Assembly (NCBI GenBank): GCA_965223845.1
Contig: CBDCXR010000004.1
Coordinates: 1,824,001-1,888,000, forward strand
Reading direction: 5' to 3'
DNA length: 64,000 bases
Source: Planctomycetota bacterium
Lineage (GTDB): Bacteria > Planctomycetota > UBA8108 > SXIK01
The notes beneath the pieces are model-generated. The model had not been told where the DNA came from, did not search any database, and worked only from the letters and a program-made list of their open reading frames with translations. Position numbers and translations under genes: made by a program. Positions 25,401 to 43,000 of this stretch are shown one piece after another (within the stretch, counting starts at the first letter, position 1; each line of letters opens with the position of its first letter).

Positions 25401-26722
25401 TCTACCTCGTCGACGTTCGCGCGACGGAGTTCGCCCCGCTCGTCGGGCAGAGGCTCGAGATGATGGACTCTCCCCTTTCTCAAGATTTCCGCTTGGAATC
25501 CGGATTTCGTGTCGACGGACGGGTCGTCGACACCGCGGGTTTGCCGATCGAGGGCGCCGAAGTCCTCGCGTTTCCCACGCTCGAAACAGACGAAGATCCG
25601 AGTCACGTGAAGTCGCGGGCGCGACGCGAGGAGACCGTTGGCTCCAGTTCGGCACGAACGGATCGGGACGGACACTGGTCGCTCGCGAATCTCCCTCGCG
25701 GCGAGACAACACTCGTCGCGAGGATCCCCGGGTACTTGTCGAGCGACTTGGCCATGGTCGAACCGGGAGATCACTCGCTCGAGCTTGTCGTCGAGGAGTT
25801 CGCATCGGTCTCCGGGGCTGCGCGGGACGGAAAGACCGGGCAGCCAGTGAGCGCATTCGAGATCGCTCTGCTGCGACCCGAGGATCATCGGTCCCGCTTC
25901 AAGGGCGATGCCTATACTTACCCCACGCGAGAGTTTGCTGCTCCGAGCGGCACGTTCCTCGTCGAGGACATTCCGGCGGGCCGGTACACCGTCGGAATCT
26001 CGGCGCACGGTTACGGAATCGAGGTCGCCGAGGTCGTGCTCCGCCCGGGCGACGATGCCGCGGTCGAATTCGTCCTTCGGCGCGGACGGCGCGTCGTCGC
26101 GACGGTGTTCGAGCTCGAGTCGAATCGACGGCTCTCCGACATTTCGATCGGCCTCTCGCCCGTCGACCGGAACGCGGGTGAGAGACTCCACATGCCGAAC
26201 CCGTACCGCGGCGTCACCGATGAGAACGGAGTCGCGATCCTCGACGGACTCGTGGACGGGAAGTTCCGCGTCAGAGCTCGACATCCGGAGTACAGGCTTC
26301 CGGATGAGCGGCTGGAGTTTCAGATCGAGAGCGGAGACGACGCGGTCGAAGAACTGACGCTCGAGATCGGCCTCGTCGCGCGGAGAGAGGGCGCTCTTCG
26401 CGGCACGATTCAGAATCGTCACGGACGCGACTCGTTCGGCCATCGACTCGTTCTCGTCAACCTCGATGACGCTGACGCGAAGCCGCTCCCGACCACGATC
26501 GAGTTCCACACCGGAAAGTATGAGCGGCGGGCCATCCCGCCGGGGGACTACGAAGTGCGCTTCGAGGAGCGAATCCTCACCGAAGAAGGAAGGCGCGTAG
26601 CCGAACGGACCGGCGGGATGCGGTACGACCTGTCCGTCGAACGATTCACCGTGCTCGGCAGCGTTCGAATCGTTGAGGGAGCGACGGCGAAGTTCGATGC
26701 GGTGCTGAACCCGGACAAGTGA
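22424..26722 (+). CDS. Membrane-anchored ECF sigma-70 factor with long C-terminal carboxypeptidase-regulatory-like (CarboxypepD_reg) repeats
   Basis: Region 2: AFEALVSRYQ...ADDVVQEAFLKAF...FGPWFLRIVRN. Region 4: LPEPVREVIYLYYYDGESVRSVAKALG. TM segment AVLVGIGICLLLTGIYVV. Many G.V.D..G.PI.GA.V...T..DG.F....L..G.Y repeats. Confidence 0.92.
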   Translation: MTLSTSFPSDSRLVRRALARDPAAFEALVSRYQRSAYAIVRSLGVGEPSADDVVQEAFLKAFENLSRLRSEDAFGPWFLRIVRNAARDQFRSRRSISIDAAHDMPFEFASAPALERSELRDRVWRIVSELPEPVREVIYLYYYDGESVRSVAKALGLTKSAVVKRMQRGRDLLRARLWAELEETLREMIPSARDWQRRGRRLALVLLGATAGASTARAASIVPSTIVVQKTVAGGFGMGGKKSAVLVGIGICLLLTGIYVVRNRILPRGDELDAEIARGQNPEAAKDDSTDPGATAAARTGEEAEIARAIDLTRPPALAGTVRDADGRPIAGARVVALDVSAWRQPFVESGSGIWDARAHTRDRTSALGELHAAYRKRGAEFAHAESGTDGSFRFARLSAGEYRVLAGHPEHLSSVDTTVFVRADEGTECEIVLAPGNSIRGRVVNDAGEPLDNVRVTARASSERAVRGGARIELLAKEWVRGEFLVASSSERTRRDGRFTIGALPLDRFDLTLSRPDFAETRRYDVVAGTQDLEIVLERGLEVTGRVLDERGDPIPGAVVFLSPVPAERERPIAIGEPIHPVVVGVPDASLPARLESPADEFARFQFRNLLPGDYQLSANHPSHPTWEARVALENESVEVEIQLEPSLAISGTVYAPDGRRVAGARVWIEKDVRGGIMSWGGRDFTPVALVECEAEENGDFELTGIPAGVYRLRAGSEDFAETVLPRVPAGAAGVDIRLEKGATIRGIVVDEDLDTPIVGALVEVGIGVAFNRHPGKVATTDQAGRFEIPGVPRRSVYLRASHDEYPELPERIRIRPGYTEREIEIRLRRPDTIRGIVVDEEGNPVARAVVMLETGRIQTIYLRRDVAAGLRRAVTAPDGSFSLRLSQKHRQEQWAPSTIVARHARFGIGRTAPLVGPGEGEPWPEIEIVLAPPSSITGRVVGSGGAAVLGARVHATRMELVQGEERDTAVTATTYSGANGAYRLDGIEPGIYLVDVRATEFAPLVGQRLEMMDSPLSQDFRLESGFRVDGRVVDTAGLPIEGAEVLAFPTLETDEDPSHVKSRARREETVGSSSARTDRDGHWSLANLPRGETTLVARIPGYLSSDLAMVEPGDHSLELVVEEFASVSGAARDGKTGQPVSAFEIALLRPEDHRSRFKGDAYTYPTREFAAPSGTFLVEDIPAGRYTVGISAHGYGIEVAEVVLRPGDDAAVEFVLRRGRRVVATVFELESNRRLSDISIGLSPVDRNAGERLHMPNPYRGVTDENGVAILDGLVDGKFRVRARHPEYRLPDERLEFQIESGDDAVEELTLEIGLVARREGALRGTIQNRHGRDSFGHRLVLVNLDDADAKPLPTTIEFHTGKYERRAIPPGDYEVRFEERILTEEGRRVAERTGGMRYDLSVERFTVLGSVRIVEGATAKFDAVLNPDK

Positions 26723-26738: not shown

Positions 26739-29700
26739 CTACGGAAGCTGTGTTTCGAGGTCCAATCGAACACCCCGAGTCACGTTCGCGTCTTCGAGCT
26801 CGAGATACTCTCCGCCCTCCTGCGCTCGGCGCACGGCGACGGAGAATCGACCCGCCGGCAATTCTCGGAGTACAAACGATCCGCCGGCGCCCGTTCGCGT
26901 TCGGAATTGTTCGTGCTTCGCCGCGAATTTCGGTCGAAGCAAGATCTCGACCCCGTCCTCTGGTTCGCCGCCGGAATCGCTCAGCGTTCCCGTGAGCTCG
27001 ATCCCTCTGCGATCGTTCCCGATCGTCAGGTGGGATCTTTGAGACGCGGTAACCGATACCCGCTCCCGAATGCGCGTTTCGGTTCGAGCGCGGACTCGCG
27101 GACCGACGGTCCACTCGACAAAAAACGCCCCGGGGGAGAGATCATTCCAGCTGAACCGACCCTCGGCGTCCGTGATCGTGTCCTCGCTCCATGCCTCTCT
27201 CGGATACTCAGCGACGCGATCCTCGTCATGAAGACGAATCAATCGGACGGTTCGCCCGGTAGCGGGCTTGCCGTCCTCAACGAGGATTCCTTCGATGACC
27301 TCTCCGGGCGAGAGTGCGACCGAGAGTTCGCCGGCATCGCCGCGTAGCTCCGGCCACTGCTTGCTCGAGAGCGCGACGCGTTGATAGCCCGGCGCCCGGA
27401 CGAGGAGAGTTCCTTCGTTCTTCGCGGTGAATTGAAACGCGCCATCCGCGGCAGTGACGATCTTCTCCACTCCGCGCATCCGCGAGAGCGTTCGTTCATT
27501 CCACACGTCTGAATGACCCGTTTTGCTGCTCAGATAAACGAGAGCGTTCGGAATCGGATCTCCGGAACTCGCGTCGAAGACGTAGCCTTCGAGTTTCGTG
27601 CCTCGTTTCAATCGAATGAGATGCTGCGGCGCCGCATCCGCTCGTGCGGGATGAACGCCGGTGAGTTCGGCCTTCGCGTACCCGTCCGCCTCGACAGCGA
27701 AGCTGAACGGCACCGGGGTGCCGGATCGGTAGAGGTTCTCGAGAACAAACCGACCGTCGGGAACCGAGAACGATTCGCCGACGACTCCACGGCGCGAGCT
27801 GTAATTCGTTCCGCCCGTGATGCGAACGCGAAACTGGTTCACGGGTTCATCGCTCGCATCGTCGACGACGCGGCCCCGGACGATCCCGGGCCGATAGAGA
27901 ACGACCGAGAGCTCCTCCTCAGTGCTCGGATTCGCCTTGCTCCAGTCAGAGTATCCGCGTGCACTCACACGAATTCTTCGCAGCCGGCGCGCCACGTCCC
28001 GGAGCGAGAACCTGCCCGGTGCATCGGTCACGGTTCGGTGGGGCACGCCGGGAAGCAGAAGCGAGACGCTGTAGGGCGTTCCGACCGAGATCGCTTCGAC
28101 ACGAGCACCCTCTACCGGGATCCCTTCCTCGTCGGTAACGGTTCCGGAGAATTCACGCGACTCACTCAGCGTGAAGTCCATCTTCGTCGGTTCGTCCGGC
28201 GTTCCCACCTTCACGTTGGGACGGATCTGTGGGGCCCAGCCGTCGGCGTAGGCGACAAGGAGGATCTCGGGAGCACGGTTCGTAAACTCGAGACGATAGG
28301 CTCCGCTACCACTCGTTTGCGCGTATTCGCTCCACGTTTCGCCGCCGAAGGACATCGTACCGTCGTTGTAGCCGACGAGAGCTCCAGCGACGGGTCGGCC
28401 ATCTGGATCGAACACGGTCCCTTCGATCGCCCGTACGCTGCGAGAGAGCGCTTCGATGACGATCCGCGACGACCATCTACCGACTTGGTCTGAGTTCGGT
28501 CGCAAATCGCCGACGGAGACGACGGTGTAGCCCTCCTTGGATATGCGGAACTTCGGTTCTCGGCGGCGGAAGGTGCTATCACGCCAGACGACCGCTTCGC
28601 CGTTCGCATCGGTGAGTGCGACGAACCTGCGCCCGTAGGAGGCGTAGCCACCGCGCTCTTGTTCCGGCGACTCGACCTCGACGTCCGCGATGGCGTGCCC
28701 GTCGGTGTCGACGACGCGAACAACGACCTCCAGCGCCGGATTGAGCTGGACGTCGCACTCGGTTCTTCCTCGTTCGGTCACGTGGAGCGCGACCTCACGC
28801 CGTGCGTAACTCTCCGCCCAAACAGCGAGCCGCGTCTCGCCCGCGCCGTTTCGCGCGAGGGAATAGACGCCGTCCTGACCCGAACGTGCACTGGACTCGG
28901 GAGTTCCCGAAGATGACTCGATCAGCGCGTTCTCGATCGGAGCCCCGGTCGTCGCGTCCGTGACGCGTCCCGATACGATGTACGCCGGATCGAGACGGAT
29001 CACGATGGGAGCCGAGGACTGCGGCCGGGTGAGGTCGACGTCGGTTGTCGCCTGGACCGCGAGCGCGTGAGCGACGACTACGCGAACGGAATCCCAGGAA
29101 TTGGGATACTCTAGGCGGGCCACGCCGCGCTCGTTCGTCGTACTCGGGGGAAGAGTGCTCGCGCGCTCGACGGCGCGCGTTCCCTCAGCGCCGGCCTGCC
29201 TGCTCTGGCGGTAAGAATCGATCCGAGCGTCCGCCACGGGTTCGCCGGATTCCGACCACACCACTCGTATCGGCAGCGCGATTTCTTCCCGCGCGTCGTC
29301 CGTTGGAAGCGCGTCGCCGGCCCCGAGGGGTGCGTCTCGGGGTTCAGGCGGCAGGTCGACGACAGCCGCGACCGATCCGGCTGGCACGGGAGCGGTCCCA
29401 TCGTCACCTTCCGTCCACACGCTGACCAGAACCGCGAGCGATGTGGCGGCGACTCCAATCACCGCAAGGGCCCCGACGGCACGCGAGAAACCACCTCCGG
29501 AAGTCGGCGCTGCCCCAGGTGAGCGCGAGAGCTCGGGCGTCGACAGTCCGGAGATCGCGATCTTTCCGAGCTTAGTGGTTAGTGAGCTCGGAACCGTCGC
29601 GAACGCGTTCTTCGTCAGCAGAGACGCGAACACAGCCGCACCGATCGGCACGCCGGCGGATCGCAGTCGAGCGCGAATGCGCTCGACCGCCTTCGCTCCG

Positions 29701-30170
29701 CGATAGCTGACGGTGCGGTGACTCAACCCGAGCGAACGGGCGATCGCCGCGATGGTCTCTTGCTCCAAATAATGCCTGACGACGACTTCACGCTGGTCGG
29801 TCGGGAGAGAGTCGATCGCCTCGTCGACGAGCGACTGGATGTCATCCCACGATACCTCGTCGATCGGAGGAGGGGGGGAGAGCGCGACTTCCCGTTCGCG
29901 GCGGCGCGATTCTCGCTTGACGAGATCGAGCGAGCAGCGGGTCGCAACGCGGTGAAGCCAGCCGGCGAGCGATGTTCGCACGCTCGTGCTTCTCTGCGCG
30001 AGCTTGAGAAAACACTCCTGCGTCGCGTCCTCAGCGTCGGCGTCGTTCCGGAGAATTCGTCGACAGGTTCCGTGCACCATGCCGGCATGCCGTTTGAGGA
30101 TTTCCGCAAACGCATCCGGGTCCCGGTTCGCGCGCCAGGCGTCGAGGAGAAGATCGTCGGAAGATGCCAT
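26739..30170 (-). CDS. Second membrane-anchored ECF sigma-70 factor with CarboxypepD_reg-like repeats
   Basis: AFAEILKRHAGMVHGTCRRILRNDADAEDATQECFLKLA...LAGWLHRVA; LPTDQREVVVRHYLEQETIAAIARSLG; TM AVGALAVIGVAATSLAVLVSVW; repeated G.V.D..G.P..GA.V units. Confidence 0.92.
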   Translation of the reverse strand: MASSDDLLLDAWRANRDPDAFAEILKRHAGMVHGTCRRILRNDADAEDATQECFLKLAQRSTSVRTSLAGWLHRVATRCSLDLVKRESRRREREVALSPPPPIDEVSWDDIQSLVDEAIDSLPTDQREVVVRHYLEQETIAAIARSLGLSHRTVSYRGAKAVERIRARLRSAGVPIGAAVFASLLTKNAFATVPSSLTTKLGKIAISGLSTPELSRSPGAAPTSGGGFSRAVGALAVIGVAATSLAVLVSVWTEGDDGTAPVPAGSVAAVVDLPPEPRDAPLGAGDALPTDDAREEIALPIRVVWSESGEPVADARIDSYRQSRQAGAEGTRAVERASTLPPSTTNERGVARLEYPNSWDSVRVVVAHALAVQATTDVDLTRPQSSAPIVIRLDPAYIVSGRVTDATTGAPIENALIESSSGTPESSARSGQDGVYSLARNGAGETRLAVWAESYARREVALHVTERGRTECDVQLNPALEVVVRVVDTDGHAIADVEVESPEQERGGYASYGRRFVALTDANGEAVVWRDSTFRRREPKFRISKEGYTVVSVGDLRPNSDQVGRWSSRIVIEALSRSVRAIEGTVFDPDGRPVAGALVGYNDGTMSFGGETWSEYAQTSGSGAYRLEFTNRAPEILLVAYADGWAPQIRPNVKVGTPDEPTKMDFTLSESREFSGTVTDEEGIPVEGARVEAISVGTPYSVSLLLPGVPHRTVTDAPGRFSLRDVARRLRRIRVSARGYSDWSKANPSTEEELSVVLYRPGIVRGRVVDDASDEPVNQFRVRITGGTNYSSRRGVVGESFSVPDGRFVLENLYRSGTPVPFSFAVEADGYAKAELTGVHPARADAAPQHLIRLKRGTKLEGYVFDASSGDPIPNALVYLSSKTGHSDVWNERTLSRMRGVEKIVTAADGAFQFTAKNEGTLLVRAPGYQRVALSSKQWPELRGDAGELSVALSPGEVIEGILVEDGKPATGRTVRLIRLHDEDRVAEYPREAWSEDTITDAEGRFSWNDLSPGAFFVEWTVGPRVRARTETRIRERVSVTASQRSHLTIGNDRRGIELTGTLSDSGGEPEDGVEILLRPKFAAKHEQFRTRTGAGGSFVLRELPAGRFSVAVRRAQEGGEYLELEDANVTRGVRLDLETQLP

Positions 30171-30889: not shown

Positions 30890-31258
30890 CGGCGCCCGCT
30901 CGCGTTTGGGTTCGCGATCGTTGCGGTCTTCGGCTCGAGACGCGCTAGAACCGCCGCGAACGTGGACGAAGTTTCTCTGCATCCAATTTCTTGGAATCGG
31001 ATTTCGCCACGTGTTCCCGCAGGAGCGTGGCGGCCCGCGGTCGCTCTCGCTGGATGCGGTCGAGCTCGAATCCGGCGGTGTTACCTGAGGCGTAGATCGA
31101 CGATCTCTCGGCGGCAGAGGAACGCAGTCACGTGGAGCGGTGTGTTGCCGTCCCGATTCGTCACCGCGACGCGCGTGCCGCTTGCAAAATCGAACGATCA
31201 TGCGACGCAAGCCGCTCCTACCCGGCGCTTCGGGGCATCGCCCGCTCGACGGCGCTCG

Positions 31259-31267
31259 TGCTACAAT
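31259..31267 (+). promoter_or_regulatory. Candidate extended -10 promoter element TGCTACAAT
   Basis: TGnTACAAT about 60 bp upstream of the RBS (GGAGGG) and ATG at 31330. Confidence 0.4.
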
Positions 31268-31329
31268 GTCGGCCACTCGTCAAGTGAGGGTTTATCGCCG
31301 CGGCATCGCGCAGGTTGGAGGGTTTGGCT

Positions 31330-34300
31330 ATGCATAGAGGAGCGGTTGTGTCCCGAGATCCGTCTCGAGACCGGATTCTTGTGGTTCGGGCAGTTGGCAT
31401 CGCGCTCGCGTGCGTACTCGCCCGTCCGGTGGTTGCGGATCCGACGCTCGGATCCTGGGGAGCGGTGCAAGCGCTCCCATGGCGTCCCGTACACTCGGTA
31501 CTTCTCCCCACCGGCAAGGTCCTCATCTACGCGAACACGGACGTCTACACCTGGGATCCCGTGAGCGAAACGCTCACGGACACGAACGATCACGGGTACA
31601 ACGCGTTCTGCGGCGGACATACGCTGCTCGCCGATGGCCGCGTCTTTTTCACGGGCGGGCACATCCCCGGCTGTAACGGTCTGCCCAACGCGACCTACTA
31701 CGATCCGTGGACCGACACCTTCACGCCGGTACCGAACATGGCGGGAGGACGCTGGTATCCATCCATGGTCACTCTCGGGAACGGTGACGTGGTGACGATG
31801 TCGGGCAAGCTCGAAGACGGCAGCAAGAACCTGATTCCGGAAGTGTGGGAGGTCGATGCCGGCGCTTGGCGCCCGCTCACGACGGCGTCCCTCAATCTGC
31901 CGCTTTTCCCCGCGGCGTTTCTCGCGCCGAACGGCCAGGTCTTTCTGGCTACGAGCACGTCGCGATTCCTCGATACCTCGGGAACGGGAACCTGGACGAC
32001 CGGGCCCACACGGCTGCACAGCGGGCGCGACAACTACGGTTCTGCCTGTCTCTACGATGTCGGGAAGGTGCTCTTTGCCGGCGGGGCCGACGCGCCGACC
32101 GCGACGTGCGAGGTGATCGACCTCAACGCCCCGACGCCGACGTGGACCGCCGTCGCGTCGATGCCGCAAGTTCGCCGCCAACACGACGTCACGATTCTCC
32201 CGGACGGACGAGTCCTCGTCATCGGCGGGAGCAGCGCATCCGGATTCAATACGGAGGACGGTCCGAAACCGGCGATCGTTTGGGATCCCGCGAGCGATGC
32301 GTGGACCACGTGGGCGATGGAAGCCGAGTACCGCGGATACCACTCCGAAGTCGTTCTTCTTCCGGACGCTCGCGTGGCGAGCATCGGAGGCGACGGCCAC
32401 CCGTCGCTTCAGGTGTTCTCTCCGCCGTATCTCTTTCAAGGGCCGCGCCCGACGATCAGTTCGGCGCCCGTGAGTGTTGCGCTCGGAGGCACGTTCTTCG
32501 TCGAGACGCCCGACGCGGCGGCGATCGGAGCGGTGAACTGGCTCCGTCCCACCGCGGCGACGCACACGCAGAACATGAATCAGCGAATCAATAAGCTCGT
32601 GTTTCAGCCCGCGCCCGGCGGTCTCAACGTCACCGTCCCCGCGAGCGCGAATGAGTGTCCTCCCGGCGACTACATGCTCTTTCTCATCGACACCAACGGC
32701 GTTCCGTCCGTCGCCGCCTGGATCGTCGCGACCGAAGCGACGGCACAACAACCCCCGCCAACCCCGACCGGGCTCGCGGCCACCGCCGGTGACGCTCAGG
32801 CGATCCTCAGCTGGAACGCCGCAACCGACGCGACGGGGTACAACGTCAAGCGATCGACGACGAGCGGCGGGCCGTACACGATCGTCGCCGCCGGGATCCC
32901 GAGCACGACCTACACCGACACGAATCTCACGAACGGAGTGACGTATTTCTACGTCGTCTCGGCAGTCAACGCCGCCGGCGAGAGCGGTGACTCGAGTGAA
33001 GTGGGTGCGACGCCGAGCTTGCAGCCGCCGGGCGCTCCGACCGATCTCGAAGCGATCGGAAACAACGGCCAGGTCGATCTCGTTTGGAGCGCTCCCACGG
33101 GAACCGTCGATTCCTACAACGTCAAACGAGCGACGACAAGCGGGGGGCCGTACGGAGCGATCGCGTCAGGGGTGGGCACGACTTCGTACGCGGACACCAC
33201 GGTGTCGAACGGCGTGACGTATTTTTACGTCGTCTCGGCGGAGAACACGGCGGGAGAGAGTCCAGACTCGACGGAGGACGACGCCACGCCGAATGCGCCG
33301 CCCACGCCGCCCGCGAATCTCTCGGCCTCACCCGGGAGCACGCAGGTTTTGCTCACCTGGAACGTCTCGCCGCTCGCCGACAGCTACAACGTCTACCGCG
33401 CGACAACTCCTGGAGGGCCTTATTCCGGCATCGCGTTCACGTGGCCGGACACGACGTTTCTCGACACTGGTCTCAGCGATGGGACGCCTTATTTCTACGT
33501 CGTCACCGGTGTCAACGACGCGGGAGAGAGCGAGTTTTCGACCGAAGCTGCCGCCACCCCGTCGGGCGCGACCGCGAAGCTTGCCTCCGGCGTCGTGAGC
33601 GGCGTCGGAAGTGACTGGCAGACCGTCACGCTCGCTCGTTCGTATGATTCGATGGTCGTCGTCGCATCGCCGAACTACGGAGCGGGAGATCTACCGGCCG
33701 TCGCGAGAGTACGCAACGCAGCGGGGAGTCAGTTCGACGTAAAGGTGCAAAATCCTTCCGGCGCCGCACTCTCGGGCTACACCGTTCATTACGTTGCGAT
33801 CGAAGAGGGCGTCTATACTGCCGCGGTCGACGGCGTCACGATGGAGGCCGTGAAGCTCACCTCGACGATCACGGACCGAAACGGCTCGTGGGTGGGGGAG
33901 AACGCGGTTTACCAAAACGGTTACCTCAGCCCTGTCGTTCTCGGGCAAGTGATGACCGAGGCCGATGTCGACTGGTCGGTCTTTTGGGCGTCGGACGGAA
34001 ACGCGGGCAATCCGCCGACGGCTGCGAGTTTCCGCGTCGGCAAGCACGTCGGTGAAGACTCGGACACCGACCGCGCAAACGAGACGCTCGGCGTGTTGGT
34101 CCTCGAAGCGGGAAGTGGCGTCGTGGAGGGGATTCCATTCGTCGCCGCCCTCGGTGCGGACAGCATTCTCGGCTACGACGACAGTCCCCCGTACTCTTAC
34201 GCGCACGGCGGACCGAGTGATGCTCGCGCGGCGGTCGTCAGCTCGGCCGGAATGGACGGCTCGAACGGAGGATTTCCGATCCTCTACGGAAGTCCGGCTT

Positions 34301-37300
34301 TGACGTCGTCGTCGCTCGATCTCGCGATCGACGAGGATCAGATCCGTGATTCCGAGCGCGTTCACATCTCCGAGCAGGTCGCGTATCTCGTCCTCGGCGA
34401 GCAAACCCTGCCGCCCGGGATCCCGTCGAATCTATCGGCTGTCGGCGGAACGAACCGCATCGACCTGACCTGGAGCAGCGCCGAACGCGCGGACGGCTAC
34501 AACGTCAAGCGGGGAACGACGCCCGGCGGACCGTACACGACGATCGCCTCGGGGATCACCTCGAACTCGTTTGCGGACACGGGACTCGCCGGCGGGGCGA
34601 CGTTCTACTACGTCGTCAGCGCGGTGAACACCGCCGGAGAAAGTGCGGATTCGGGTGAAGCGACTGGGACGACGACGTCGCCGCCGGTCATCCACTCGTT
34701 CGTTGGCACGGCGAATCCGGCACCGGTGTTGAGCGACGTCACGTTCACCCTGTCCGCTTCCGACGCGGATCTCGATCCTCTTCAGTACTCCTTCGATTTC
34801 GGGGACGGTTCTCCGGCGACTGCGTTCTCGCCGTCGACCTCGGCGATGCACAGCTACCCGGCGCCGGGCCGGTACACGGTGACGGGATACGTCACGGATG
34901 CAACGTCGACGGTGTTCACCACCCTCGTACAGGTGATTCATCTGCCGCTACCCGCTGCGCGTCCGACCGTCTCCACGCAGATCCTCTACGACGCAGGCCG
35001 CGGCAAGATTTGGAATGTCAATCCCGACAGCGACACGGTCACGCGGACCGGAACGTCGAACCTCACCAAGGACTTCGAGGTTTCCGTCGGGGCAGAGCCG
35101 CGGAGCCTCACCCTCCGGCCGGACGGGAGTGAGATCTGGGTAGCATCTGAGGGCGCCGATCAGCTCTGCGTCCTCGATCCGCAGACTGGCGCGGTGCTCG
35201 CCAAGCTGGCGACGCCACGTGGATCGCGCCCGATGAATGTCGTCTTCTCCCCGAATGGGCTCACTGTGTACGTGACCTACATGGCGAGCGGGGAGCTCGC
35301 CCGCTGGGATCCGGCGGCGCGCACCGAAACGGGCCGGGTGAATCTCGGCTCGACTCCCCGCGCGATTGCGATCTCGTCCGATTCTACCCGGATCTTCGTC
35401 GGAAGATTCGTATCGGGCCCTCTCGAGGGGGAAGTGCGGGAAGTCGACGCCGCGTCGCTCACCGTCACTCGCGCGATTTCGCTGGCGCACGATACCACGC
35501 CCGATTCGGAATCCTCCGGACGCGGAACACCCAATTATCTGATCCAGATGGCGATCACGCCGGACGAACAGCGTCTCTGGATTCCGTCGAAGAAGGACAA
35601 CACCGATCGCGGACTCTTCCGTGACGGCCTCGTGCTCACGCACGACAGCACCGTGCGCTCGATCGTCTCGCAGGTCGATCTCGGAGCGAACTCCGAGGAC
35701 CTCGCGGCTCGCATCGATGTCGACGATCACGAGATCCCCTACGGCGTCGACTTCTCCCCGGTGGGAGATCTCGCGTTCGTCGCCTACCAAGGAAACAACT
35801 CGGTGCGGGTGTTCGATCGGTACGAAGGCACCTCGATCGCGGAGATTTCGCTCGGAGCGGAGCTCGCACCGCAGGGACTCGTCGTCACGCCGGACGGGAG
35901 TCGACTCTTCGTGATGAACTTCATGAGCCGAAGTGTCTCCGCGTTCGACATCGCGGGGCTCGTCAACGGAACGAGAACCGACGCGACCGAGCTCGCCGTC
36001 GTCTCCACGGTCGCGACGGAGCTTCTTCCGCCCGACGTCCTCCTCGGGAAGCAAGTCTTCTACAACGCGGCGGATACCCGGATGACGGCGGCTGGCTACA
36101 TCAGCTGCGCGACGTGCCACCTCGACGGCGGGCAGGACGGTCGAGTGTTCGACTTCACCGACCGCGGCGAAGGCCTCCGCAACACGGTCGACCTGCGCGG
36201 ACGCTCGGGGACTGGTCACGGCAACGTTCACTGGACGGCGAACTTCGACGAGATCCAGGATTTCGAGCACGATATCCGCGGCCCGTTCGCCGGCACGGGA
36301 TTCATCAACGGGCCGGTGAACGCGTCCCTCGGAGCGCCGAACGCCGGACGGAGCGTCGAGCTCGACGCGCTCGCGGCCTACGTCGCCTCGCTCGACTCGG
36401 TCGGGCGAAGTCCGTACCGGATGGAGGACGGCTCGCTGAGCGCGGACGGAGTCGCCGGGCGGCTGATCTTTCAAGATCTCGAGTGCGCTGGATGTCACTC
36501 CGGAACGAACTTCTCCGACAGCAACGTCGCGACGAGCGGCCACGTGCTTCACGACGTCGGTACGATCACGGCCGGATCCGGCGAGCGCCTCGGCGGTCCG
36601 CTGACGGGTCTCGACACGCCGACCCTGCGCGGACTCTGGGACGGCGGGCCTTACCTCCACGACGGCTCCGCGCCGACACTCCTCGACGTGCTGACGACCG
36701 CGAATCCGATCGATCAGCACGGCGCGACGAGCGGGCTGAGCGCGGTCGAGCTCGATCAGCTCGTTGCGTATCTTCTTCAAATCGACGACGCATCCGATGC
36801 CGCCGTTCCCGTGCGGCCGACGAATGTGCAGGCGGTCGGTGGAAACGGTGTCGTGCTCCTCGATTGGGACGACGTCCCGGGCGCCGACAGTTACTCCATC
36901 CGATCGTCGACGGTCTCGGGCGGACCCTACGGACTCGTCGCGTCCGGAATCGTAGACAGCTCGTTTGCGGACTCGTCGGTCGTCAACGGCAATACGTACT
37001 ACTACGTGGTCAGTGCCGACAACGCGGGCGGCCAGGGATTCGACTCGGACGAAGTGAACGCGACGCCGGGAGCGATCTTCGCGAAACTCGCTACTGGGGT
37101 GATCCACGACGTCGGCAGCGACTGGGTGATGGTCGATCTCGGACAGTCCTACTCGTCGATGGTGGTCGTGTGCACGGTCGCCGCGACTCCCGGTCAGCTA
37201 CCCGCGGTGCCGCGCGTTCGAAACGCCTCGGGGAGTCAGTTCGAGCTCAAGGTACAGAACCCATCGGGCGCGGTGCTGAGTGGGTACACCGTCCACTCGG

Positions 37301-37908
37301 TCGCGGTCGAGGAAGGGACCTACACGACCGCGGCACACGGGTTCACGATGGAAGCGGTGAAACGCGCCAGCACGCGGACGGACAGCTACCAGTCGTGGCT
37401 CCCCCAGCCGTCGAGCTATCTGAACGCCTACGCCAATCCGGTCGTCATCGGTCAAGTGATGACGGAGAACGACGCCGCTTGGTCGGCCTTCTGGGCTAAC
37501 GATGGGTCGAACCGCCGCAATCCACCGACGGGCGGAGGATTTGGCGTGGGACTGCACGTCGGCGAGGATTCGAACGCAGCGCGCGCCAGCGAGACTCTCG
37601 GCTACATCGTCCTCGAAGCCGGCGCGGGATCGATCGACGGCATCTCCTTCGTCGCCCGCCTGGGGAGTGACATCGTGCGGGGCGTCGACAACTCGCCTCC
37701 GTACAGCTACTCCGTCTCCGGTCTCTCGAATCCGAGCGTCGCGATCGTAAGCTCGGCGGCGATGGACGGCGGAAACGGAGGTTGGCCGGCCCTCTACGGA
37801 ACCAACCCGGTCGGATCGACACTCGATCTCGCGATCTACGAAGATCAGATCCGCGACTCGGAACAGCGACACGGAACGGAGCAAGTCGCGTATGTCATCT
37901 TCGAATGA
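31330..37908 (+). CDS. Giant secreted copper-radical oxidase (galactose/glyoxal oxidase, AA5-like, plus DUF1929) fused to FN3 x5, two lectin-like repeats, PKD, YVTN/YncE beta-propeller and a di-heme cytochrome c peroxidase-like domain
   Basis: Signal peptide ending ARPVVA|DPTLGSW. Oxidase motifs NAFCGGH, RWYPS, YRGYHSEVVLLPDARV, ATHTQNMNQR, CPPGDYMLF. PKD: YSFDFGDGS...HSYPAPGRYTVT. Heme motifs CATCH and CAGCH, with DTPTLRGLWDGGPYLHDGSA. Start at the ATG with GGAGGG RBS (track starts at TTG 31315). Confidence 0.92.
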   Translation: MHRGAVVSRDPSRDRILVVRAVGIALACVLARPVVADPTLGSWGAVQALPWRPVHSVLLPTGKVLIYANTDVYTWDPVSETLTDTNDHGYNAFCGGHTLLADGRVFFTGGHIPGCNGLPNATYYDPWTDTFTPVPNMAGGRWYPSMVTLGNGDVVTMSGKLEDGSKNLIPEVWEVDAGAWRPLTTASLNLPLFPAAFLAPNGQVFLATSTSRFLDTSGTGTWTTGPTRLHSGRDNYGSACLYDVGKVLFAGGADAPTATCEVIDLNAPTPTWTAVASMPQVRRQHDVTILPDGRVLVIGGSSASGFNTEDGPKPAIVWDPASDAWTTWAMEAEYRGYHSEVVLLPDARVASIGGDGHPSLQVFSPPYLFQGPRPTISSAPVSVALGGTFFVETPDAAAIGAVNWLRPTAATHTQNMNQRINKLVFQPAPGGLNVTVPASANECPPGDYMLFLIDTNGVPSVAAWIVATEATAQQPPPTPTGLAATAGDAQAILSWNAATDATGYNVKRSTTSGGPYTIVAAGIPSTTYTDTNLTNGVTYFYVVSAVNAAGESGDSSEVGATPSLQPPGAPTDLEAIGNNGQVDLVWSAPTGTVDSYNVKRATTSGGPYGAIASGVGTTSYADTTVSNGVTYFYVVSAENTAGESPDSTEDDATPNAPPTPPANLSASPGSTQVLLTWNVSPLADSYNVYRATTPGGPYSGIAFTWPDTTFLDTGLSDGTPYFYVVTGVNDAGESEFSTEAAATPSGATAKLASGVVSGVGSDWQTVTLARSYDSMVVVASPNYGAGDLPAVARVRNAAGSQFDVKVQNPSGAALSGYTVHYVAIEEGVYTAAVDGVTMEAVKLTSTITDRNGSWVGENAVYQNGYLSPVVLGQVMTEADVDWSVFWASDGNAGNPPTAASFRVGKHVGEDSDTDRANETLGVLVLEAGSGVVEGIPFVAALGADSILGYDDSPPYSYAHGGPSDARAAVVSSAGMDGSNGGFPILYGSPALTSSSLDLAIDEDQIRDSERVHISEQVAYLVLGEQTLPPGIPSNLSAVGGTNRIDLTWSSAERADGYNVKRGTTPGGPYTTIASGITSNSFADTGLAGGATFYYVVSAVNTAGESADSGEATGTTTSPPVIHSFVGTANPAPVLSDVTFTLSASDADLDPLQYSFDFGDGSPATAFSPSTSAMHSYPAPGRYTVTGYVTDATSTVFTTLVQVIHLPLPAARPTVSTQILYDAGRGKIWNVNPDSDTVTRTGTSNLTKDFEVSVGAEPRSLTLRPDGSEIWVASEGADQLCVLDPQTGAVLAKLATPRGSRPMNVVFSPNGLTVYVTYMASGELARWDPAARTETGRVNLGSTPRAIAISSDSTRIFVGRFVSGPLEGEVREVDAASLTVTRAISLAHDTTPDSESSGRGTPNYLIQMAITPDEQRLWIPSKKDNTDRGLFRDGLVLTHDSTVRSIVSQVDLGANSEDLAARIDVDDHEIPYGVDFSPVGDLAFVAYQGNNSVRVFDRYEGTSIAEISLGAELAPQGLVVTPDGSRLFVMNFMSRSVSAFDIAGLVNGTRTDATELAVVSTVATELLPPDVLLGKQVFYNAADTRMTAAGYISCATCHLDGGQDGRVFDFTDRGEGLRNTVDLRGRSGTGHGNVHWTANFDEIQDFEHDIRGPFAGTGFINGPVNASLGAPNAGRSVELDALAAYVASLDSVGRSPYRMEDGSLSADGVAGRLIFQDLECAGCHSGTNFSDSNVATSGHVLHDVGTITAGSGERLGGPLTGLDTPTLRGLWDGGPYLHDGSAPTLLDVLTTANPIDQHGATSGLSAVELDQLVAYLLQIDDASDAAVPVRPTNVQAVGGNGVVLLDWDDVPGADSYSIRSSTVSGGPYGLVASGIVDSSFADSSVVNGNTYYYVVSADNAGGQGFDSDEVNATPGAIFAKLATGVIHDVGSDWVMVDLGQSYSSMVVVCTVAATPGQLPAVPRVRNASGSQFELKVQNPSGAVLSGYTVHSVAVEEGTYTTAAHGFTMEAVKRASTRTDSYQSWLPQPSSYLNAYANPVVIGQVMTENDAAWSAFWANDGSNRRNPPTGGGFGVGLHVGEDSNAARASETLGYIVLEAGAGSIDGISFVARLGSDIVRGVDNSPPYSYSVSGLSNPSVAIVSSAAMDGGNGGWPALYGTNPVGSTLDLAIYEDQIRDSEQRHGTEQVAYVIFE
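33574..37905 (+). repeat. Two diverged copies of a ~275-aa domain (33574-34401 and 37081-37905) inside the oxidase gene
   Basis: AKLASGVVSGVGSDWQTVTLARSYDSMVVV...HISEQVAYLVLG vs AKLATGVIHDVGSDWVMVDLGQSYSSMVVV...HGTEQVAYVIFE. Confidence 0.85.
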
Positions 37909-37933
37909 GAATCACAGCCGGAGAGGTATTCCG

Positions 37934-39721
37934 ATGACCAGACTCTCGAGCTCCGCTCTCCAGGTCACACTCGCGGCGGTCGTTCTCGCGATGACCGCGC
38001 GTCCACTCGACGCGGAGGTGCGGACGCTGCGATTCGGCATCGGCCTCAACTGCCCGTACGGACTCGGCGAATGTTGGCCCCAGGTCTTCGACGGGTTGCA
38101 GGGGCTTCCCGGCGCCGAGCTGATCGCGGAAGAGGCGAACGACGTCAACGAGACTTGCGTCGTCCGTCCCATTGGAGGGCGGATGCTCGATCCGAAGGCG
38201 ATCGCGGACTACATCGCAAAGATCCGCATCGGCGTGTGGCTTCGCGGAGTCGAGGCCACGGTCGACGGAAGATTGGAGCTGCGCGGCGAAGAGCTGGTCC
38301 TCGTTTCCTCGGAGACGGACATCTTCCGGCTCGCTCCTCTCGACCAGAAGATCGAGTACGACTTCCGCGGCAAGCGTCGCTTCGAGGCGCGCGCGGAGGA
38401 GTTGCTCGCTTTCGCGCGGTTGAGGGCGCAGTGGGACGGACGACCGCGGCGCGTCCGTCTCACCGGACCGGTCGTCAGCGACTCTGCGGGCGCCCCGTCT
38501 GAATCTGAGGGCCGCGAACGCCTCGTGCTCCAAGTCCGCGAGTTCTACTCGTTCGGGAGCGTGCCCCCCAGTGCGAAGGCGCTTCGCCTCGGCGTCCGCG
38601 CCAACAGCCCCTACGGTCTAACGGAAATCTGGGCCACTCTTCGAGCGACCCTCGCCGACTTGCCGGGTGTCGCGTCCGTCGCCTCCGGACCGGACGAAGA
38701 CACGTCGCGAATCGACGTAGAGACTCACGGCGAGCCTCCGAACCTCCGCGTGTGGTCCGAACGGGTGCGGGCCGCCAGAATCGGAGCTCAGCTCGCGGGG
38801 ATCGAACTCGCGCTCGAAGGGCGCATCATCAAGCGCCGAGGTCAGCTCGCTCTCCTTCGTGAGGGCGCTCGCGATCCCGTTTACCTGGCGCCGATTTCGA
38901 AGAACGTAGCGTGGGATTACCGTAAGCGCGCGGAGATTCTCCCGTCGACCGCCGAGGAGAATGCCTACTACGATCTTCTCGCGGCGTGGTCGCCACGCCG
39001 CCGCGAAGCGCGGGTCGCGGGAGTCTTCGTCGGTCGAGATGGCGAGTGGATACTCGAGGTGAAGGACTATCGCTGGACGGGTTTCGAAGGCCGAGCCGCG
39101 AATGCTCGGGACCTGAATCCACCTCGAGCACCGAGAACCGTCCGGGCTCGGGTGCTGAAGGGAAACATCGATCTTCGCTGGGCTCCGAACGTGGAGCGCG
39201 ATCTCGCCGGCTACCGCGTCTATCGCGCCGAAGAGGCGAAGGGGCCGTACGTCTGCATCGTGAAATCGCTCGTTCGGGACGCTCACGTCGCGCTCGACAC
39301 AAACGTAGCGAGTCCGAACGACTGGCTCTTCGTCACTGCGGTCGACCGCACGGGCAACGAGTCCGCCAAGTCGCGGCCGAGCTCAGCGGCACCTCCACAA
39401 GCGCCGGGCGGCCCGACGTTCACACTGCGCGGCACCGACGTCGCTCTCGATTGGAAAGACAACGTCGACCCGGACTTCGATAGCTACAGCATTCACCGCT
39501 CGACATCACCGGGAGGTCCGTACGGTGAGATCGCCTCGGTGATCTACGACAGTACCTACGTAAACGGCGGGCTCCGTCCCGGGAACGTCTACTATTACGT
39601 CGTGACCGCGATGGACAGTTCGTACAATGAGTCCGCGCGATCAACGGAGATCTGCGTGCGCGTGCCGGCGGCGCCGGCAGTCCCCGCGGTCGAGACACCG
39701 ACCTTGTCGACGAGAGAGTGA
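37934..39721 (+). CDS. Secreted protein with two HMA/ferredoxin-like repeat modules (CPYGxxxCW in the first) and two C-terminal FN3 domains
   Basis: RBS GAGAGG then MTRLSSSALQVTLAAVVLAMTARPLDA. Repeat 1: LRFGIGLNCPYGLGECWPQVFDGLQGLPGA. Repeat 2: LRLGVRANSPYGLTEIWATLRATLADLPGV. FN3 consensus at the C-terminus. Confidence 0.85.
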   Translation: MTRLSSSALQVTLAAVVLAMTARPLDAEVRTLRFGIGLNCPYGLGECWPQVFDGLQGLPGAELIAEEANDVNETCVVRPIGGRMLDPKAIADYIAKIRIGVWLRGVEATVDGRLELRGEELVLVSSETDIFRLAPLDQKIEYDFRGKRRFEARAEELLAFARLRAQWDGRPRRVRLTGPVVSDSAGAPSESEGRERLVLQVREFYSFGSVPPSAKALRLGVRANSPYGLTEIWATLRATLADLPGVASVASGPDEDTSRIDVETHGEPPNLRVWSERVRAARIGAQLAGIELALEGRIIKRRGQLALLREGARDPVYLAPISKNVAWDYRKRAEILPSTAEENAYYDLLAAWSPRRREARVAGVFVGRDGEWILEVKDYRWTGFEGRAANARDLNPPRAPRTVRARVLKGNIDLRWAPNVERDLAGYRVYRAEEAKGPYVCIVKSLVRDAHVALDTNVASPNDWLFVTAVDRTGNESAKSRPSSAAPPQAPGGPTFTLRGTDVALDWKDNVDPDFDSYSIHRSTSPGGPYGEIASVIYDSTYVNGGLRPGNVYYYVVTAMDSSYNESARSTEICVRVPAAPAVPAVETPTLSTRE

Positions 39722-40029
39722 GCTTGGACTGGCAAGACGAGGCGCCCGAAGCCGACCGGAATCCCTACAGCTCACCGGAAACGGACGCGTATGGAGACCC
39801 CCGGGCGAGCCCTCCCATTTTCAAAGCTTGGCTTCTCTTCTTTCTCGCGGCGACCTTCATCGGGTTCGGAGTCGGCCTGGCGGTAGGCGCCGTCGCCGGT
39901 GGGATCATGGGCACGGCGGGCGTCGACGTCCAGACGATCGAGATCGTCGGGCAGCTCGGTGGGTTCTTGCTCAGCATCCCGATTTCGTACCTCTCCTTTC
40001 GCTGGTCGGTCAGGAAGTACCTCCTCTGA
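39718..40029 (+). CDS. Small membrane protein with planctomycete-type NPYxSP N-terminal motif
   Basis: GTGA overlap with the upstream gene; DRNPYSSPET followed by two hydrophobic helices. Confidence 0.8.
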   Translation: MSLDWQDEAPEADRNPYSSPETDAYGDPRASPPIFKAWLLFFLAATFIGFGVGLAVGAVAGGIMGTAGVDVQTIEIVGQLGGFLLSIPISYLSFRWSVRKYLL

Positions 40030-40096
40030 TGGAGCGGCTTCGGAAGAGCTCCTCTCACGGCGAGCAGCGCGCGATTTCCGATCGGAGTCGGTCGTG

Positions 40097-43000
40097 ATGC
40101 GGACTTCGAGTCGGCGAGCAGTGACATTCCTTGTATGCGTCCACCTCGGCACGTCGAGTGCGATGCTCGCCGAAGACGAAGTGAGCGGCTTCGTCGCGCC
40201 CGCCGGCTTCTCGGTCGAGCTCGTCGCGGGCGACGATCTCGCGCACGACATTTACTCCATGACGCTCGACACGCGCGGGCGTCCGGTCGTCTCGGGCGCG
40301 GGCTACATCAAGACGCTGGTCGACCGCGACGGCGACGGACGCGCGGACAAAGCCGAGCTCTTCGCGGCTTGGCCCCCGGGTGGCGCGCATGGTCTCCTCG
40401 TGAGCGGCAGGGATCTCTACGCCTCGACCGGAACGGGTCTCTACCGGCTCTCGGATGCCGACGGCGATGGGCGCGCCGATGCGGCTCCGACGAAGATCGC
40501 GGCCGGGTACGGTGGCGGTGAGCATTCGTCGAACGGCATCGTCAAGGGACCGGATGGCTGGCTTTGGTGGATCCACGGAAACGACGCGCGCGTCAACGCG
40601 GAGCACATCACGACGAATCGATCGCCGGTGCGCGAAGTAAGCTGCGGCGCGGTGGTCCGACTTTCCCCGGACGGGAATCGGAGCGAGGTTTACGCGGACG
40701 GATTTCGGAACCCCTACGATCTCGACTTCGGTCCATTCGGCCAGTTGTACACGTACGACGCAGACGGAGAGCGCGTGCATCACCTTCCGTGGTACAGCCC
40801 GACGCGCGTGTTCGACATCGCGCAGGGGATGCACCACGGCTGGGTGCTCAGAAAATGGCAGCACGCATGGAATCAGGCGAAGTCCAACTGCGACAACGTC
40901 GAGCGCCTCTGCGAAATCGGACGCGGATCGCCGACGGGCGTCGTCGTCTACCGCCATCGCCTCTTTCCGAAACGATACCGCGATGGACTCTTTGTCGCGT
41001 GCTGGTCGAAGGGACGCGTCTACCATCTTCCGCTCACTCGGCGAGGATCGACGTTTGAAACGGAGCTCGAGGTCTTTCTCGAGACGAGCGGCGACGTCGG
41101 CTTCGCTCCCGTCGATCTCGCAGTCGGTCCGTCCGGAGATCTTTTCGTCGCGATCGGAGGGCGGGGAACTAGGGGGAGCGTGTTCCATGTTCGGTACGGA
41201 TCGGCAGCGACGGAGACCGCGCCGTTCGGATCGGATCTCGTCGCGGTGCTGCGCGCTCAGCAACCGCTCGCGTCGTGGTCGCGAGCGCAGTGGGTACCCG
41301 TGGCTCGGGTGCTCGGCCGCAAGCCATTCGAGTCGGCGGTGATCGACGAATCCCTTCCGGCGAAGGAGCGGATCCGTGCGATCGAGATCCTGGTCGAGCT
41401 TTTCTCGGGTCCGTCCGCGTCGGTTGCGGAGAAGCTTCTTTCGGACAGAGAACCGGAAATCGTCGCCCGCACGCTCTGGGCAGCCGCGTACGACGACACA
41501 GCCAGCGGCCGAGAGGCCGTCATACGATCGACGCGGAGCGACGACGCGCGCATCCTTCGCGCCGCCTGGGAAGGGGTCGCTCGGTTCGGAAGTCCGATCA
41601 ACCTCAACACCGAACCCGACTGGACGCGTGGACTCACCCACGCTGACCGGCGAGTCCGCGCAGCCGCGGTCATCGCCGCGCGTTCTCCGGGCGGTCGCGA
41701 CTCGTTCACGCGAAGCATCTCGCTCGCGTCCGCGCGGGATCCGAAGCTCCTCGTCGGATGGCTTCGCGGGACAGCGCCTCCTCGCGGAGAGGCGACGTCG
41801 TCGGAGGAGTGGTTCGGCGCCGCCGAGCGCGCTCTTCGCGAAGCAAAGGATCGAATGACGCGCCTTGAAGCGACGCGCATGATCGTCCGCGGGCTCGGCG
41901 ATATCGCGGTGGTGCAAGATCAGCCCCGCGTGACGGACGGCTTCGAGGCGAGGGACCCGGGCGTCCTCTCTGCCGCAACGCGCGTTCGCATCGCGCGTCG
42001 ACTGGCCGCCGCTTTGCCTTCTGGCGATCGAGATCTCGATCGCGAACTTCTTCGTACCGTCGCGATTCTCGCGGTGGACTGTCCCGAGGCCCTCGACAAG
42101 GCGGCTGCGCTCTGGACGCCAACCTCGGACGTTGAGGACGACATTCATTTTCTTCTCGCCGCCGGGCGGATCCGTGGAGAGCCGCCGGATGGGTTTCCGC
42201 ACGCAGCCGCGAGCGCGTTCGCGTCGCTCCACCGAAAGATGCGCGAAGACCGACGAGAGACGAGCCGATTCTGGCCGACGCGCGTCGCCGCGGCGTACCG
42301 ACAGCTCGCGGGCAAGGTCGAACGTCTCGACTTCCACCTCATCGCGGACCCGCAGTTCGGTGACGCCGAGCACACGCTGTTCCTCGATGCGATCGGGGAC
42401 GACACGACGAAGGCGAAGGCAATTGCGAAGCTCCTCGATACCGCGCGCGAAAGCGGGCGGTGGACGAGCGATCTCGTCCGGCACGTCGGCCGCTCGGGTC
42501 ATGCGGAGGCGCTCACGGCGCTGCGAGAGAGAGGACGAGATCCCGATCTCCGAGATGCGGTTGTGCTCGTGCTCTCGAAGCACTCGGACGTCGCCGATCG
42601 TGAACTCTTCATCGAGGCGCTCAGCTCGTATCGAAGTGACGTCGTGCGTGCAGCCGCACGGGCGCTCGCTAACATGAAGCTCAATCTCGGCCGGGACGAG
42701 CTCGTCGATGCCTTTCTGGCCCTCAGGCGCTTTTGCTCGCACGCGCGCGAGAAGAACACCCGAGAGGCGCTGAGAGGGCTTCTCGCCGCCGGGACAGGCG
42801 CCGAAATCGAAGTGCGAGAATCAGCCGACGGCGCGAACGCCCACGCTGCGCACGCACCGTGGTTCGACTGGCTCGGCGAGAATCATCCCGCGGAGGCCCG
42901 CGCCGTCTCGGCGGTCCAGGGCGCGAGCATCGACGAGATTCTCGCGCGCGTCTCTCCGGACATCTCCGCCGGCGACCGCGAGCGCGGCGCGCTCGTCTTC

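Follow-up and report, generated by a model that had tools for sequence, protein, structure and literature searches.

A copper radical oxidase and a propeller-di-heme module joined in a single chain: a candidate coupled oxidase-peroxidase from a Planctomycetota bacterium

The window analysed here is a stretch of 64,000 nucleotides (nt) from a Planctomycetota bacterium (GTDB lineage Bacteria; Planctomycetota; UBA8108; SXIK01; assembly GCA_965223845.1, contig CBDCXR010000004.1, positions 1,824,001 to 1,888,000 of the forward strand), and the subject of this study is one of its genes, which encodes a modular protein with both a copper radical oxidase (CRO) and a di-heme c domain. The ORF list and the translation give a single uninterrupted open reading frame (ORF) on the plus strand, 31315/31330..37908, corresponding to 2197 or 2192 amino acids (aa) depending on the start. 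A GGAGG lies 8 nt 5' of the ATG at 31330, translation of the 2192-aa ORF meets 0 internal stops, and the GC content is even along its length, at 0.64-0.67. A first-pass annotation, made from the sequence alone, had proposed a single-chain fusion with intact catalytic motifs; the single ORF and a check of the motifs, each of which was found at the nucleotide given for it, bear this out. From the Sec signal in its sequence the protein is predicted to be exported, and its layout, all on the plus strand, is as follows.

31330..31437, + strand: Sec-type signal peptide, aa 1-36 (ending ...ARPVVA, followed by DP), recognized by eye from the translation; no twin-arginine motif
31447..32739, + strand: CRO, comprising a kelch propeller (aa 40-372) and a GO-like E-set domain (aa 373-465); Pfam, NCBIfam and PDB matches
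32755..33573, + strand: three FN3 repeats, aa 476-748; Pfam fn3 8.6e-22 over 3 stretches, boundaries from motif positions
33574..34401, + strand: REP1, first copy of a 275-aa all-beta H-type-lectin-like domain, aa 749-1024; self-alignment with REP2
34411..34677, + strand: fourth FN3-like repeat, aa 1028-1116; motif YNVKR..GGPY..YYYVVSAVN, no separate Pfam score
34678..34935, + strand: PKD domain, aa 1117-1202; Pfam PKD_4 8.9e-11, PKD 2.3e-10
34942..36009, + strand: seven-bladed YVTN beta-propeller, aa 1205-1560; TIGR02276 7.9e-14, PDB 1l0q 1.4e-25
36010..36813, + strand: di-heme c domain, aa 1561-1828; matches to 5c2v_C, the bacterial cytochrome c peroxidase (bCCP) 3o5c and RoxA-like_Cyt-c
36814..37080, + strand: fifth FN3-like repeat, aa 1829-1917; motif in the translation
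37081..37908, + strand: REP2, second H-lectin-like copy, aa 1918-2192, then the stop codon; AlphaFold2 (AF2) model and alignment with REP1

Judged by their sequence scores, the matches that define the catalytic parts (GO-like_E_set, NCBIfam GlxA and the gamma subunit of hydrazine synthase, HZS) lie far beyond chance. The N-terminal domain is classed as a CRO on its predicted kelch propeller and GO-like E-set architecture and on the presence of the five cofactor and ligand residues. PDB matches span aa 36-469 and include 9g8h and 9g43 (1.2e-43) and GlxA 4unm (2.4e-42), and, further down, fungal galactose oxidases (about 1e-26 to 1e-28), while in Pfam the domain is recognized by GO-like_E_set (PF09118; 8.6e-20 over aa 373-465) and by Kelch_6, Kelch_1 and Kelch_4 above their cut-offs, Glyoxal_oxid_N scoring 27.4 bits, below its cut-off of 37.5. 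The best NCBIfam match is GlxA (1.4e-58). The GlxA equivalog model (NF052501) gives, however, only 198.7 bits against a cut-off of 800, and the domain is thus a relative of GlxA rather than an ortholog. In the HMMER alignment Cys94 (NAFCGG, nt 31609), Tyr143 (RWYPS, nt 31756), Tyr337 and His338 (RGYHS, nt 32338) and His412 (ATHT, nt 32563) pair with ..FCPG.., ..RGYQS.., ..YHS.. and ..THT.. of 9g8h, and all five are kept in 80/80 CRO-bearing relatives. The contention that the five galactose-oxidase active-site equivalents are intact is therefore upheld, both by alignment to solved galactose oxidases and by conservation. The residue that stacks over the Tyr-Cys cofactor, Trp290 of galactose oxidase, is a separate matter: the stacking-Trp loop of 9g8h, ..SDNHAW.., falls in a gap of the query alignment. 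Trp142, which adjoins the cross-link Tyr143, is kept in 79/80 CRO-bearing relatives and is specific to the family. The source genome contains this CRO only.

Towards the C-terminus the YVTN propeller is followed by the di-heme domain, in which the heme I site (CATCH, nt 36106; C1593-xx-C1596-H1597) and the heme II site (CAGCH, nt 36484; C1719-xx-C1722-H1723) flank VHWTANFDE (nt 36226), with TPTLRG..PYLHDGS at nt 36616-36669. Both CxxCH motifs are kept in 104/104 heme-bearing relatives, and W1635, H1777 and H1797 are invariant in 48/48 alignment rows. Since the CRO residues and the CxxCH motifs are retained throughout (80/80 and 104/104), both parts appear to be under selection. The heme signatures had been read as those of the bCCP/MauG family, a reading that stands at the level of the superfamily and gives way at the level of the family. 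Two CxxCH motifs, a two-domain fold and TPTLR..PY(F/L)HDGS are shared with bCCP, MauG and MbnH, as may be a conserved Trp between the heme motifs, and the sequence places the domain in the cytochrome c peroxidase (CCP) superfamily. The nearest kin, however, are the beta and gamma subunits of Kuenenia HZS (5c2v), the best match of the propeller-di-heme unit in both structure and sequence: the heme domain matches HZS-gamma 5c2v_C at 1.2e-22, compared with 6.6e-9 for the best bCCP, 3o5c (range to 1e-3), and 1.6e-4 for MbnH 6e1c. To our knowledge, no propeller precedes the heme domain in bCCP, MauG or MbnH. It should be emphasized that the HZS family cut-offs are far off, NCBIfam hydrazine_BC matching at 4.7e-26 yet with 91.2 bits against 1250, and hydrazine_gamma with 78.7 bits against 625; Pfam RoxA-like_Cyt-c scores 27.4 bits against a cut-off of 26.7. 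Another difference from HZS is that the column of its third heme-linking Cys (5c2v_C chain residue 126, presumably the residue named gamma-Cys165) holds Pro in the window protein.

The probable ligation of heme II sets the domain further apart from bCCP and MauG. The column of the bCCP Met ligand (..NTMADIQLG.. in 3o5c) is Ala in the query, and the alignment yields neither the His/Met pair of bCCP nor the His/Tyr pair of MauG. Because the Met column is Ala and the invariant His1797 aligns with the HZS-gamma His in ..MHG.., heme II is probably bis-His. In excerpts from a 2025 paper (PMC12758564) the second heme of HZS-gamma is described as a bis-His, solvent-facing electron-transfer heme, gamma-II, and HZS-gamma homologs from outside the anammox bacteria as carrying a CCP/MauG-type Trp. 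The window protein appears to resemble those homologs: its invariant Trp1635, a candidate for the CCP/MauG-type Trp, lies near the column of gamma-His144, at a distance of 3 residues in the 5c2v_C alignment. An AlphaFold model of aa 1205-1860, built on a 48-row alignment, has a predicted local distance difference test (pLDDT) score of 84.9, mostly >90 in the propeller, and a predicted template modelling (pTM) score of 0.87, which suggests that propeller and di-heme domain make up a single rigid unit. The modelled propeller matches the archaeal YVTN propeller 1l0q_A with a VIA Z of 38.5 and HZS-beta 5c2v_B with a Z of 38.3 and a root mean square deviation of 1.9 Å over 306 residues; the structure match lists of this model are filled by propellers, so that the fold comparison covers the propeller part.

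The two REP copies, which are identical at 170 of 277 alignment columns (about 61%), had been described as lectin-like and as part of a tether to a polysaccharide. This is plausible from ESM Atlas, where REP2 scores 0.96 to clusters with 10-32% of members labelled H_lectin, and from weak VIA matches of REP2 to HPA (2ccv, Z 3.6), SLL-2 (3wmp, 3.8), the discoidin I C-domain (2w94, 4.2) and a phage tailspike end (4.7), each spanning one lobe of about 75-83 residues. Pfam, by contrast, offers no match to the domain even at E 10, PF09458 H_lectin included, and a Foldseek search with the model returned nothing at E <= 0.001, the best E being 7.7e-3. The AF2 model of REP2 is all-beta (pLDDT 89.6, pTM 0.90), and a relative, P0040, carries a true H_lectin domain after its di-heme domain, in the place that REP2 holds in the window protein. 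The model consists of three beta-sandwich lobes of about 80-95 residues each, and single-chain pseudo-trimers (C1q, adiponectin and the PCSK9 C-domain) match the whole REP length, weakly. We thus regard REP as a putative three-lobed H-lectin-like binding domain, a lead rather than a proven assignment, and on the strength of the model it may be a single-chain version of a trimeric H-type lectin.

The fusion is a widespread architecture and not a one-off. Among the 120 best relatives, ranked on the whole fused query, 78 (the window protein included) have both CRO and heme domain, 2 have the CRO only, 26 the heme domain only and 14, which are FN3-rich, neither. The CRO is N-terminal to the heme domain in 78/78 fused proteins and the propeller directly precedes the heme domain in 77/78, and source labels among the fused relatives include Woeseiaceae, Steroidobacter(aceae), Pseudomonadota, Caldilinea and Acidobacteria. 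In the heme-only relatives, lectin- or Ig-type partners (Laminin_G_3, Big_5, LVIVD) occupy the place of the CRO. Within a sample of 401 genomes of the window's phylum a CRO was found in 14 and a heme module in 32, often as a stand-alone ORF of 600-740 aa, and both parts occur together in 5 genomes as against about 1.1 expected at random, a comparison in which related genomes are not independent. One genome of this sample, G003, has two fused genes. The second (G003:C1:4277608-4282605, minus strand) is an ORF of 2203 aa whose CRO is 34% and whose heme domain is 55% identical to the query, and by sequence the two are diverged fused paralogs.

FastTree trees were built from 224 CRO domains, rows with <350/431 query positions being dropped, and from 104 propeller-heme modules. 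On both, the fused proteins fall into three groups, namely a group of 9 that includes the query, a large clade of 66-67 and the pair P0033/P0035, with unfused forms between them, and each tree needs 5 changes of state. Three independent fusions are unproven, as one old fusion followed by losses fits equally well. Indeed, the distant large clade has its REP copies at the two places where the query has them, which speaks for a common origin of the entire layout. Whichever history is correct, selection has retained or re-created the combination of CRO and heme module.

We propose that the protein is an exported modular oxidase-peroxidase in which the CRO and the heme unit are functionally coupled, a reading for which we put the chances at about even. 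In this scheme the enzyme would be tethered by its H-lectin-like, FN3 and PKD modules to a cell-surface polymer or a glycan, where the N-terminal CRO would oxidize an alcohol or aldehyde group and reduce O2 to H2O2. The PKD-propeller-di-heme unit of the same chain would then take this H2O2 at heme I, the presumed counterpart of the catalytic heme in bCCP, MauG and HZS-gamma, and a high-valent heme would form, with Trp1635 and the bis-His heme II relaying the oxidizing equivalent. Two outcomes can be envisaged: the inhibitory product H2O2 would be removed, and a strong one-electron oxidant would be generated that could re-oxidize the CRO when it is in its off-cycle Cu(II)-Tyr form, or oxidize a second substrate. 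Coupling is supported by the recurrence of the fusion in fixed order, with both sites conserved and in three groups on both trees, by the excess of co-occurring genomes over the random expectation, by the rigid propeller-di-heme model, and by the CCP-superfamily heme domain together with precedents for CRO-peroxidase couples. According to excerpts from a review (PMC11611005), CROs make H2O2 and fall into an inactive state, and both horseradish peroxidase (HRP) and tandem peroxidases activate them. A narrower version of this idea, which we put forward tentatively and think somewhat unlikely, is self-activation, in which the enzyme's own H2O2 would bring the di-heme site to a MauG-like state that oxidizes the Tyr-Cys of the copper site in cis, over a long range through Trp1635 and heme II, with no external activator. 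A complex prediction for the CRO domain and the di-heme domain with two hemes gave a score of 0.00 with no controls and counts neither way.

Several observations weigh against coupling. The relatives list, being ranked on the fused query, favours fused forms; in an unbiased search with the CRO domain alone, which yielded 4557 cluster representatives at E <= 1e-30, a heme module accompanies only 1 of the best 150, many of these sequences being short and maybe truncated. Only two of the 401 genomes in the phylum sample, G000 and G003, hold the fusion in one ORF. The heme module lacks a CRO in 26 of the 120 best relatives and also exists as stand-alone propeller-di-heme proteins of 600-740 aa; for this reason the PKD-propeller-di-heme unit is not a dedicated CRO accessory. 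Conversely, no heme module lies within about 9 kb of the stand-alone CROs of G037, G049 and G060, and the split form, a CRO gene beside a propeller-di-heme gene, is thus absent from these three loci; the 3886-aa CRO protein of another genome, G021, is likewise without the module. The stretch between CRO and heme domain is 548-1136 residues long in fused proteins, and contact between the two would therefore need the chain to fold back. The character of the heme domain adds to the difficulty. Pfam CCP_MauG scores 22.6 bits in the window protein, below its cut-off of 25.6, although it passes that cut-off in the relatives P0040 (36.8 bits) and P0015 (33.3 bits); the Met or Tyr ligand expected of bCCP or MauG appears unconserved and heme II seems to have the bis-His ligation of HZS-gamma, the chemistry of which, according to excerpts from PMC12758564, involves NO and hydroxylamine rather than peroxide.

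It could be argued from the same distribution that the PKD-propeller-di-heme unit is the main catalyst, acting as a peroxygenase, oxygenase or peroxidase on its own substrate, a polymer or a small molecule, and that the CRO is only its source of H2O2, the copper radical being left untouched. The unit is the constant core of the architecture, being joined also to the non-enzymatic partners Laminin_G_3, Big_5 and LVIVD, it stands alone in genes for 600-740-aa proteins, with a match in 15 of the 20 genomes of family f10, and 26 of the 120 best relatives dispense with the CRO. Its Pfam match is RoxA-like_Cyt-c, RoxA being an oxygenase. Such a division of labour would resemble a glyoxal oxidase (GLOX) feeding lignin peroxidase, and excerpts from PMC11611005 do describe GLOX as supplying peroxidases with H2O2. 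Against this stand the lack of a known substrate for the module and the fungal and Streptomyces pairs, in which the peroxidases do act on the activity or maturation of the CRO. It should be noted that a catalytic heme unit fed by the CRO overlaps with the coupled oxidase-peroxidase and does not exclude it. We consider this alternative possible rather than probable.

Mechanistic independence of the two modules is a less attractive explanation, in which the chain would be a mosaic surface protein, or the heme domain would detoxify ambient peroxide with an external donor in the manner of bCCP. The family does show heavy domain shuffling, as FN3, PKD, PA14, F5/8-C, He_PIG and REP vary between relatives, each catalytic part is also found alone, and the spacers between the CRO and heme parts are long. 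Nevertheless, the order CRO, REP, PKD-propeller-di-heme, REP is kept as far as P0015 and P0020, whose CROs are only 33-34% identical, the CRO and heme parts co-occur in three groups on both trees, and neither catalytic site varies among the fused proteins, which makes independence improbable in our view.

We regard as highly improbable that the di-heme domain is an electron-transfer cytochrome carrying electrons from the CRO to a respiratory acceptor instead of O2, a dehydrogenase mode that would liken the protein to quinohemoprotein dehydrogenases or cellobiose dehydrogenase. A probably bis-His, solvent-facing heme II, aligned with heme gamma-II of HZS (excerpts from PMC12758564), and the presence, 2 kb downstream, of a gene encoding a cytochrome c domain would fit such a role. 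The conserved, catalytic-type CCP-superfamily pocket suggested at heme I by its invariant residues would, however, be superfluous for a simple relay. Electron flow from CRO to heme would moreover run uphill, on general knowledge of the potentials: bis-His hemes are usually of low potential, and the couples of the CRO are placed at about +0.15 to +0.4 V or above.

That the ORF is an assembly chimera, as the first-pass annotation had allowed, or a decaying pseudogene can be set aside as a negligible risk: although Logan contigs are broken near 36229-36270 in 3/4 runs, the broken ends share about 28-30 nt, which fall on a highly conserved motif, the frame has no internal stops and an even GC of 0.64-0.67, a 16,324-nt contig of the remaining run (X1), made with a different assembler from what may be the same source sample, spans 31000-38200 with 0 differences, and G003 carries on one 9.18-Mb contig a full-length ortholog, with 67% identity across 2183 aligned residues. 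The fusion is thus not an artefact, and chimeric assembly is effectively excluded. The region 36229-36270 encodes the invariant HW(T/S)ANFDE motif, and short contigs of other sequences share 30-40 bases with it, which suggests that related heme modules are present in further organisms of those samples.

Returning to the coupled oxidase-peroxidase, two known systems provide its closest parallels. Streptomyces lividans GlxA (4unm) and the DyP-type peroxidase DtpA resemble the window protein in the CRO domain and in the logic of the system, and excerpts from PMC4736821 describe DtpA as a peroxidase that works with GlxA and consumes the H2O2 that GlxA makes, and on which GlxA depends for maturation. 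DtpA, however, is a heme-b DyP and a separate protein exported by the twin-arginine translocation (Tat) pathway, in contrast to the fused c-type di-heme domain of the CCP superfamily described here, and the window protein further differs from the GlxA system in its Sec-like signal, in having no cslA-type neighbour and in not being a GlxA equivalog. The fungal Perox-AlcOx pair of Colletotrichum and Magnaporthe, an AA5_2 alcohol oxidase with a heme peroxidase, is likewise a dedicated CRO-peroxidase couple, in which, according to excerpts from PMC11611005 and PMC9770985, the tandem peroxidase activates its CRO better than HRP. This pair is eukaryotic, is encoded by two head-to-head genes, uses heme b and has neither propeller nor lectin modules. 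No CRO joined to a c-type cytochrome or a CCP domain is described in the full-text literature searched, which lies outside subscription journals and supplements; the words 'cytochrome' and 'fusion' occur 0 times in the review PMC11611005, as do 'galactose oxidase', 'glyoxal' and 'kelch' in PMC12758564. The initial impression that no characterized enzyme has this fusion thus agrees with that literature. The domain families and the coupling logic are known, and what is new is the single-chain form with an HZS-beta-gamma-like module.

CROs are widely used biocatalysts that drift into inactivity in vitro and are usually rescued with HRP, while natural re-activation is known for only two systems, both of separate proteins. 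A single-chain CRO and heme enzyme makes it possible to test directly whether bacteria couple their CROs to peroxidases as a physiological rule, may show how CROs stay active in nature and is a possible activator-free oxidase for biocatalysis. It also opens a way into the function of the propeller-di-heme module, which is common in environmental bacteria, uncharacterized and, outside the anammox bacteria, the nearest relative of HZS beta-gamma; self-activation, if true, would supply a first function for these widespread relatives, as peroxide-driven oxidases of proteins or polymers. The family is large and occurs in several phyla, and is therefore easy to sample for expression.

Among the neighbouring genes, one overlaps the fused oxidase.

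37892..39721, + strand: downstream gene of 609 aa, with a 17-nt overlap with the stop of the main ORF (ORF list)

From this arrangement the 609-aa gene is probably co-transcribed with the main ORF. Its product has a signal-like N-terminus, two similar domains of about 190 aa that are of no known family and two FN3 repeats at the C-terminus, and G003 has a 49%-identical counterpart in the same overlapping position after the ortholog, its other neighbours not being conserved. Pfam detects only fn3, ESM Atlas scores are <= 0.77, and a search of genome contigs for related loci returned 3, matched through the FN3 end only. The product may be a dedicated partner, for example a chaperone or an anchor. 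By eye, the first of the two similar domains contains a C-x6-C motif, NCPYGLGEC.

The stand-alone modules of family f10 have neighbours of their own: at 4/5 such propeller-di-heme loci a gene of 219-245 aa with a thioredoxin/Redoxin/AhpC-TSA fold lies directly 3'.

L016:10823-11521: thioredoxin/AhpC-fold gene
L017:10543-11277: thioredoxin/AhpC-fold gene
L018:9288-9944: thioredoxin/AhpC-fold gene
L019:8862-9530: thioredoxin/AhpC-fold gene

The partner could be of the peroxiredoxin type or of the TlpA/CcmG type, and its recurrence beside the module fits a redox or peroxide role for the latter.

The other neighbours in the window include extracytoplasmic function (ECF) sigma fusions, a DUF7133-HEAT-cytochrome c protein, a kinase, a STAND-WD40 protein, an esterase and a sulfatase. 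The convergent genes at 22424-26722 (+ strand) and 26739-30170 (- strand) encode proteins of 1432 aa and 1143 aa, in which ECF sigma-70 regions 2 and 4 are followed by 5-7 CarboxypepD_reg repeats, so that a sigma factor is joined, unusually, to an extended repeat array of the extracytoplasmic type. The gene at 39899-43378 (+ strand), 2 kb 3' of the fused oxidase, encodes a 1159-aa protein in which DUF7133 and HEAT repeats are combined with a cytochrome c domain at the C-terminus. Finally, the stretch 43619-53121 (+ strand) contains a gene for an 887-aa Ser/Thr kinase with DUF4062 and a weak TIR_2 match, below the Pfam cut-off, whose end is overlapped by the gene for a 2280-aa nSTAND1 NTPase with many WD40 repeats; from their domains this pair looks like a signalling or defence-type unit.

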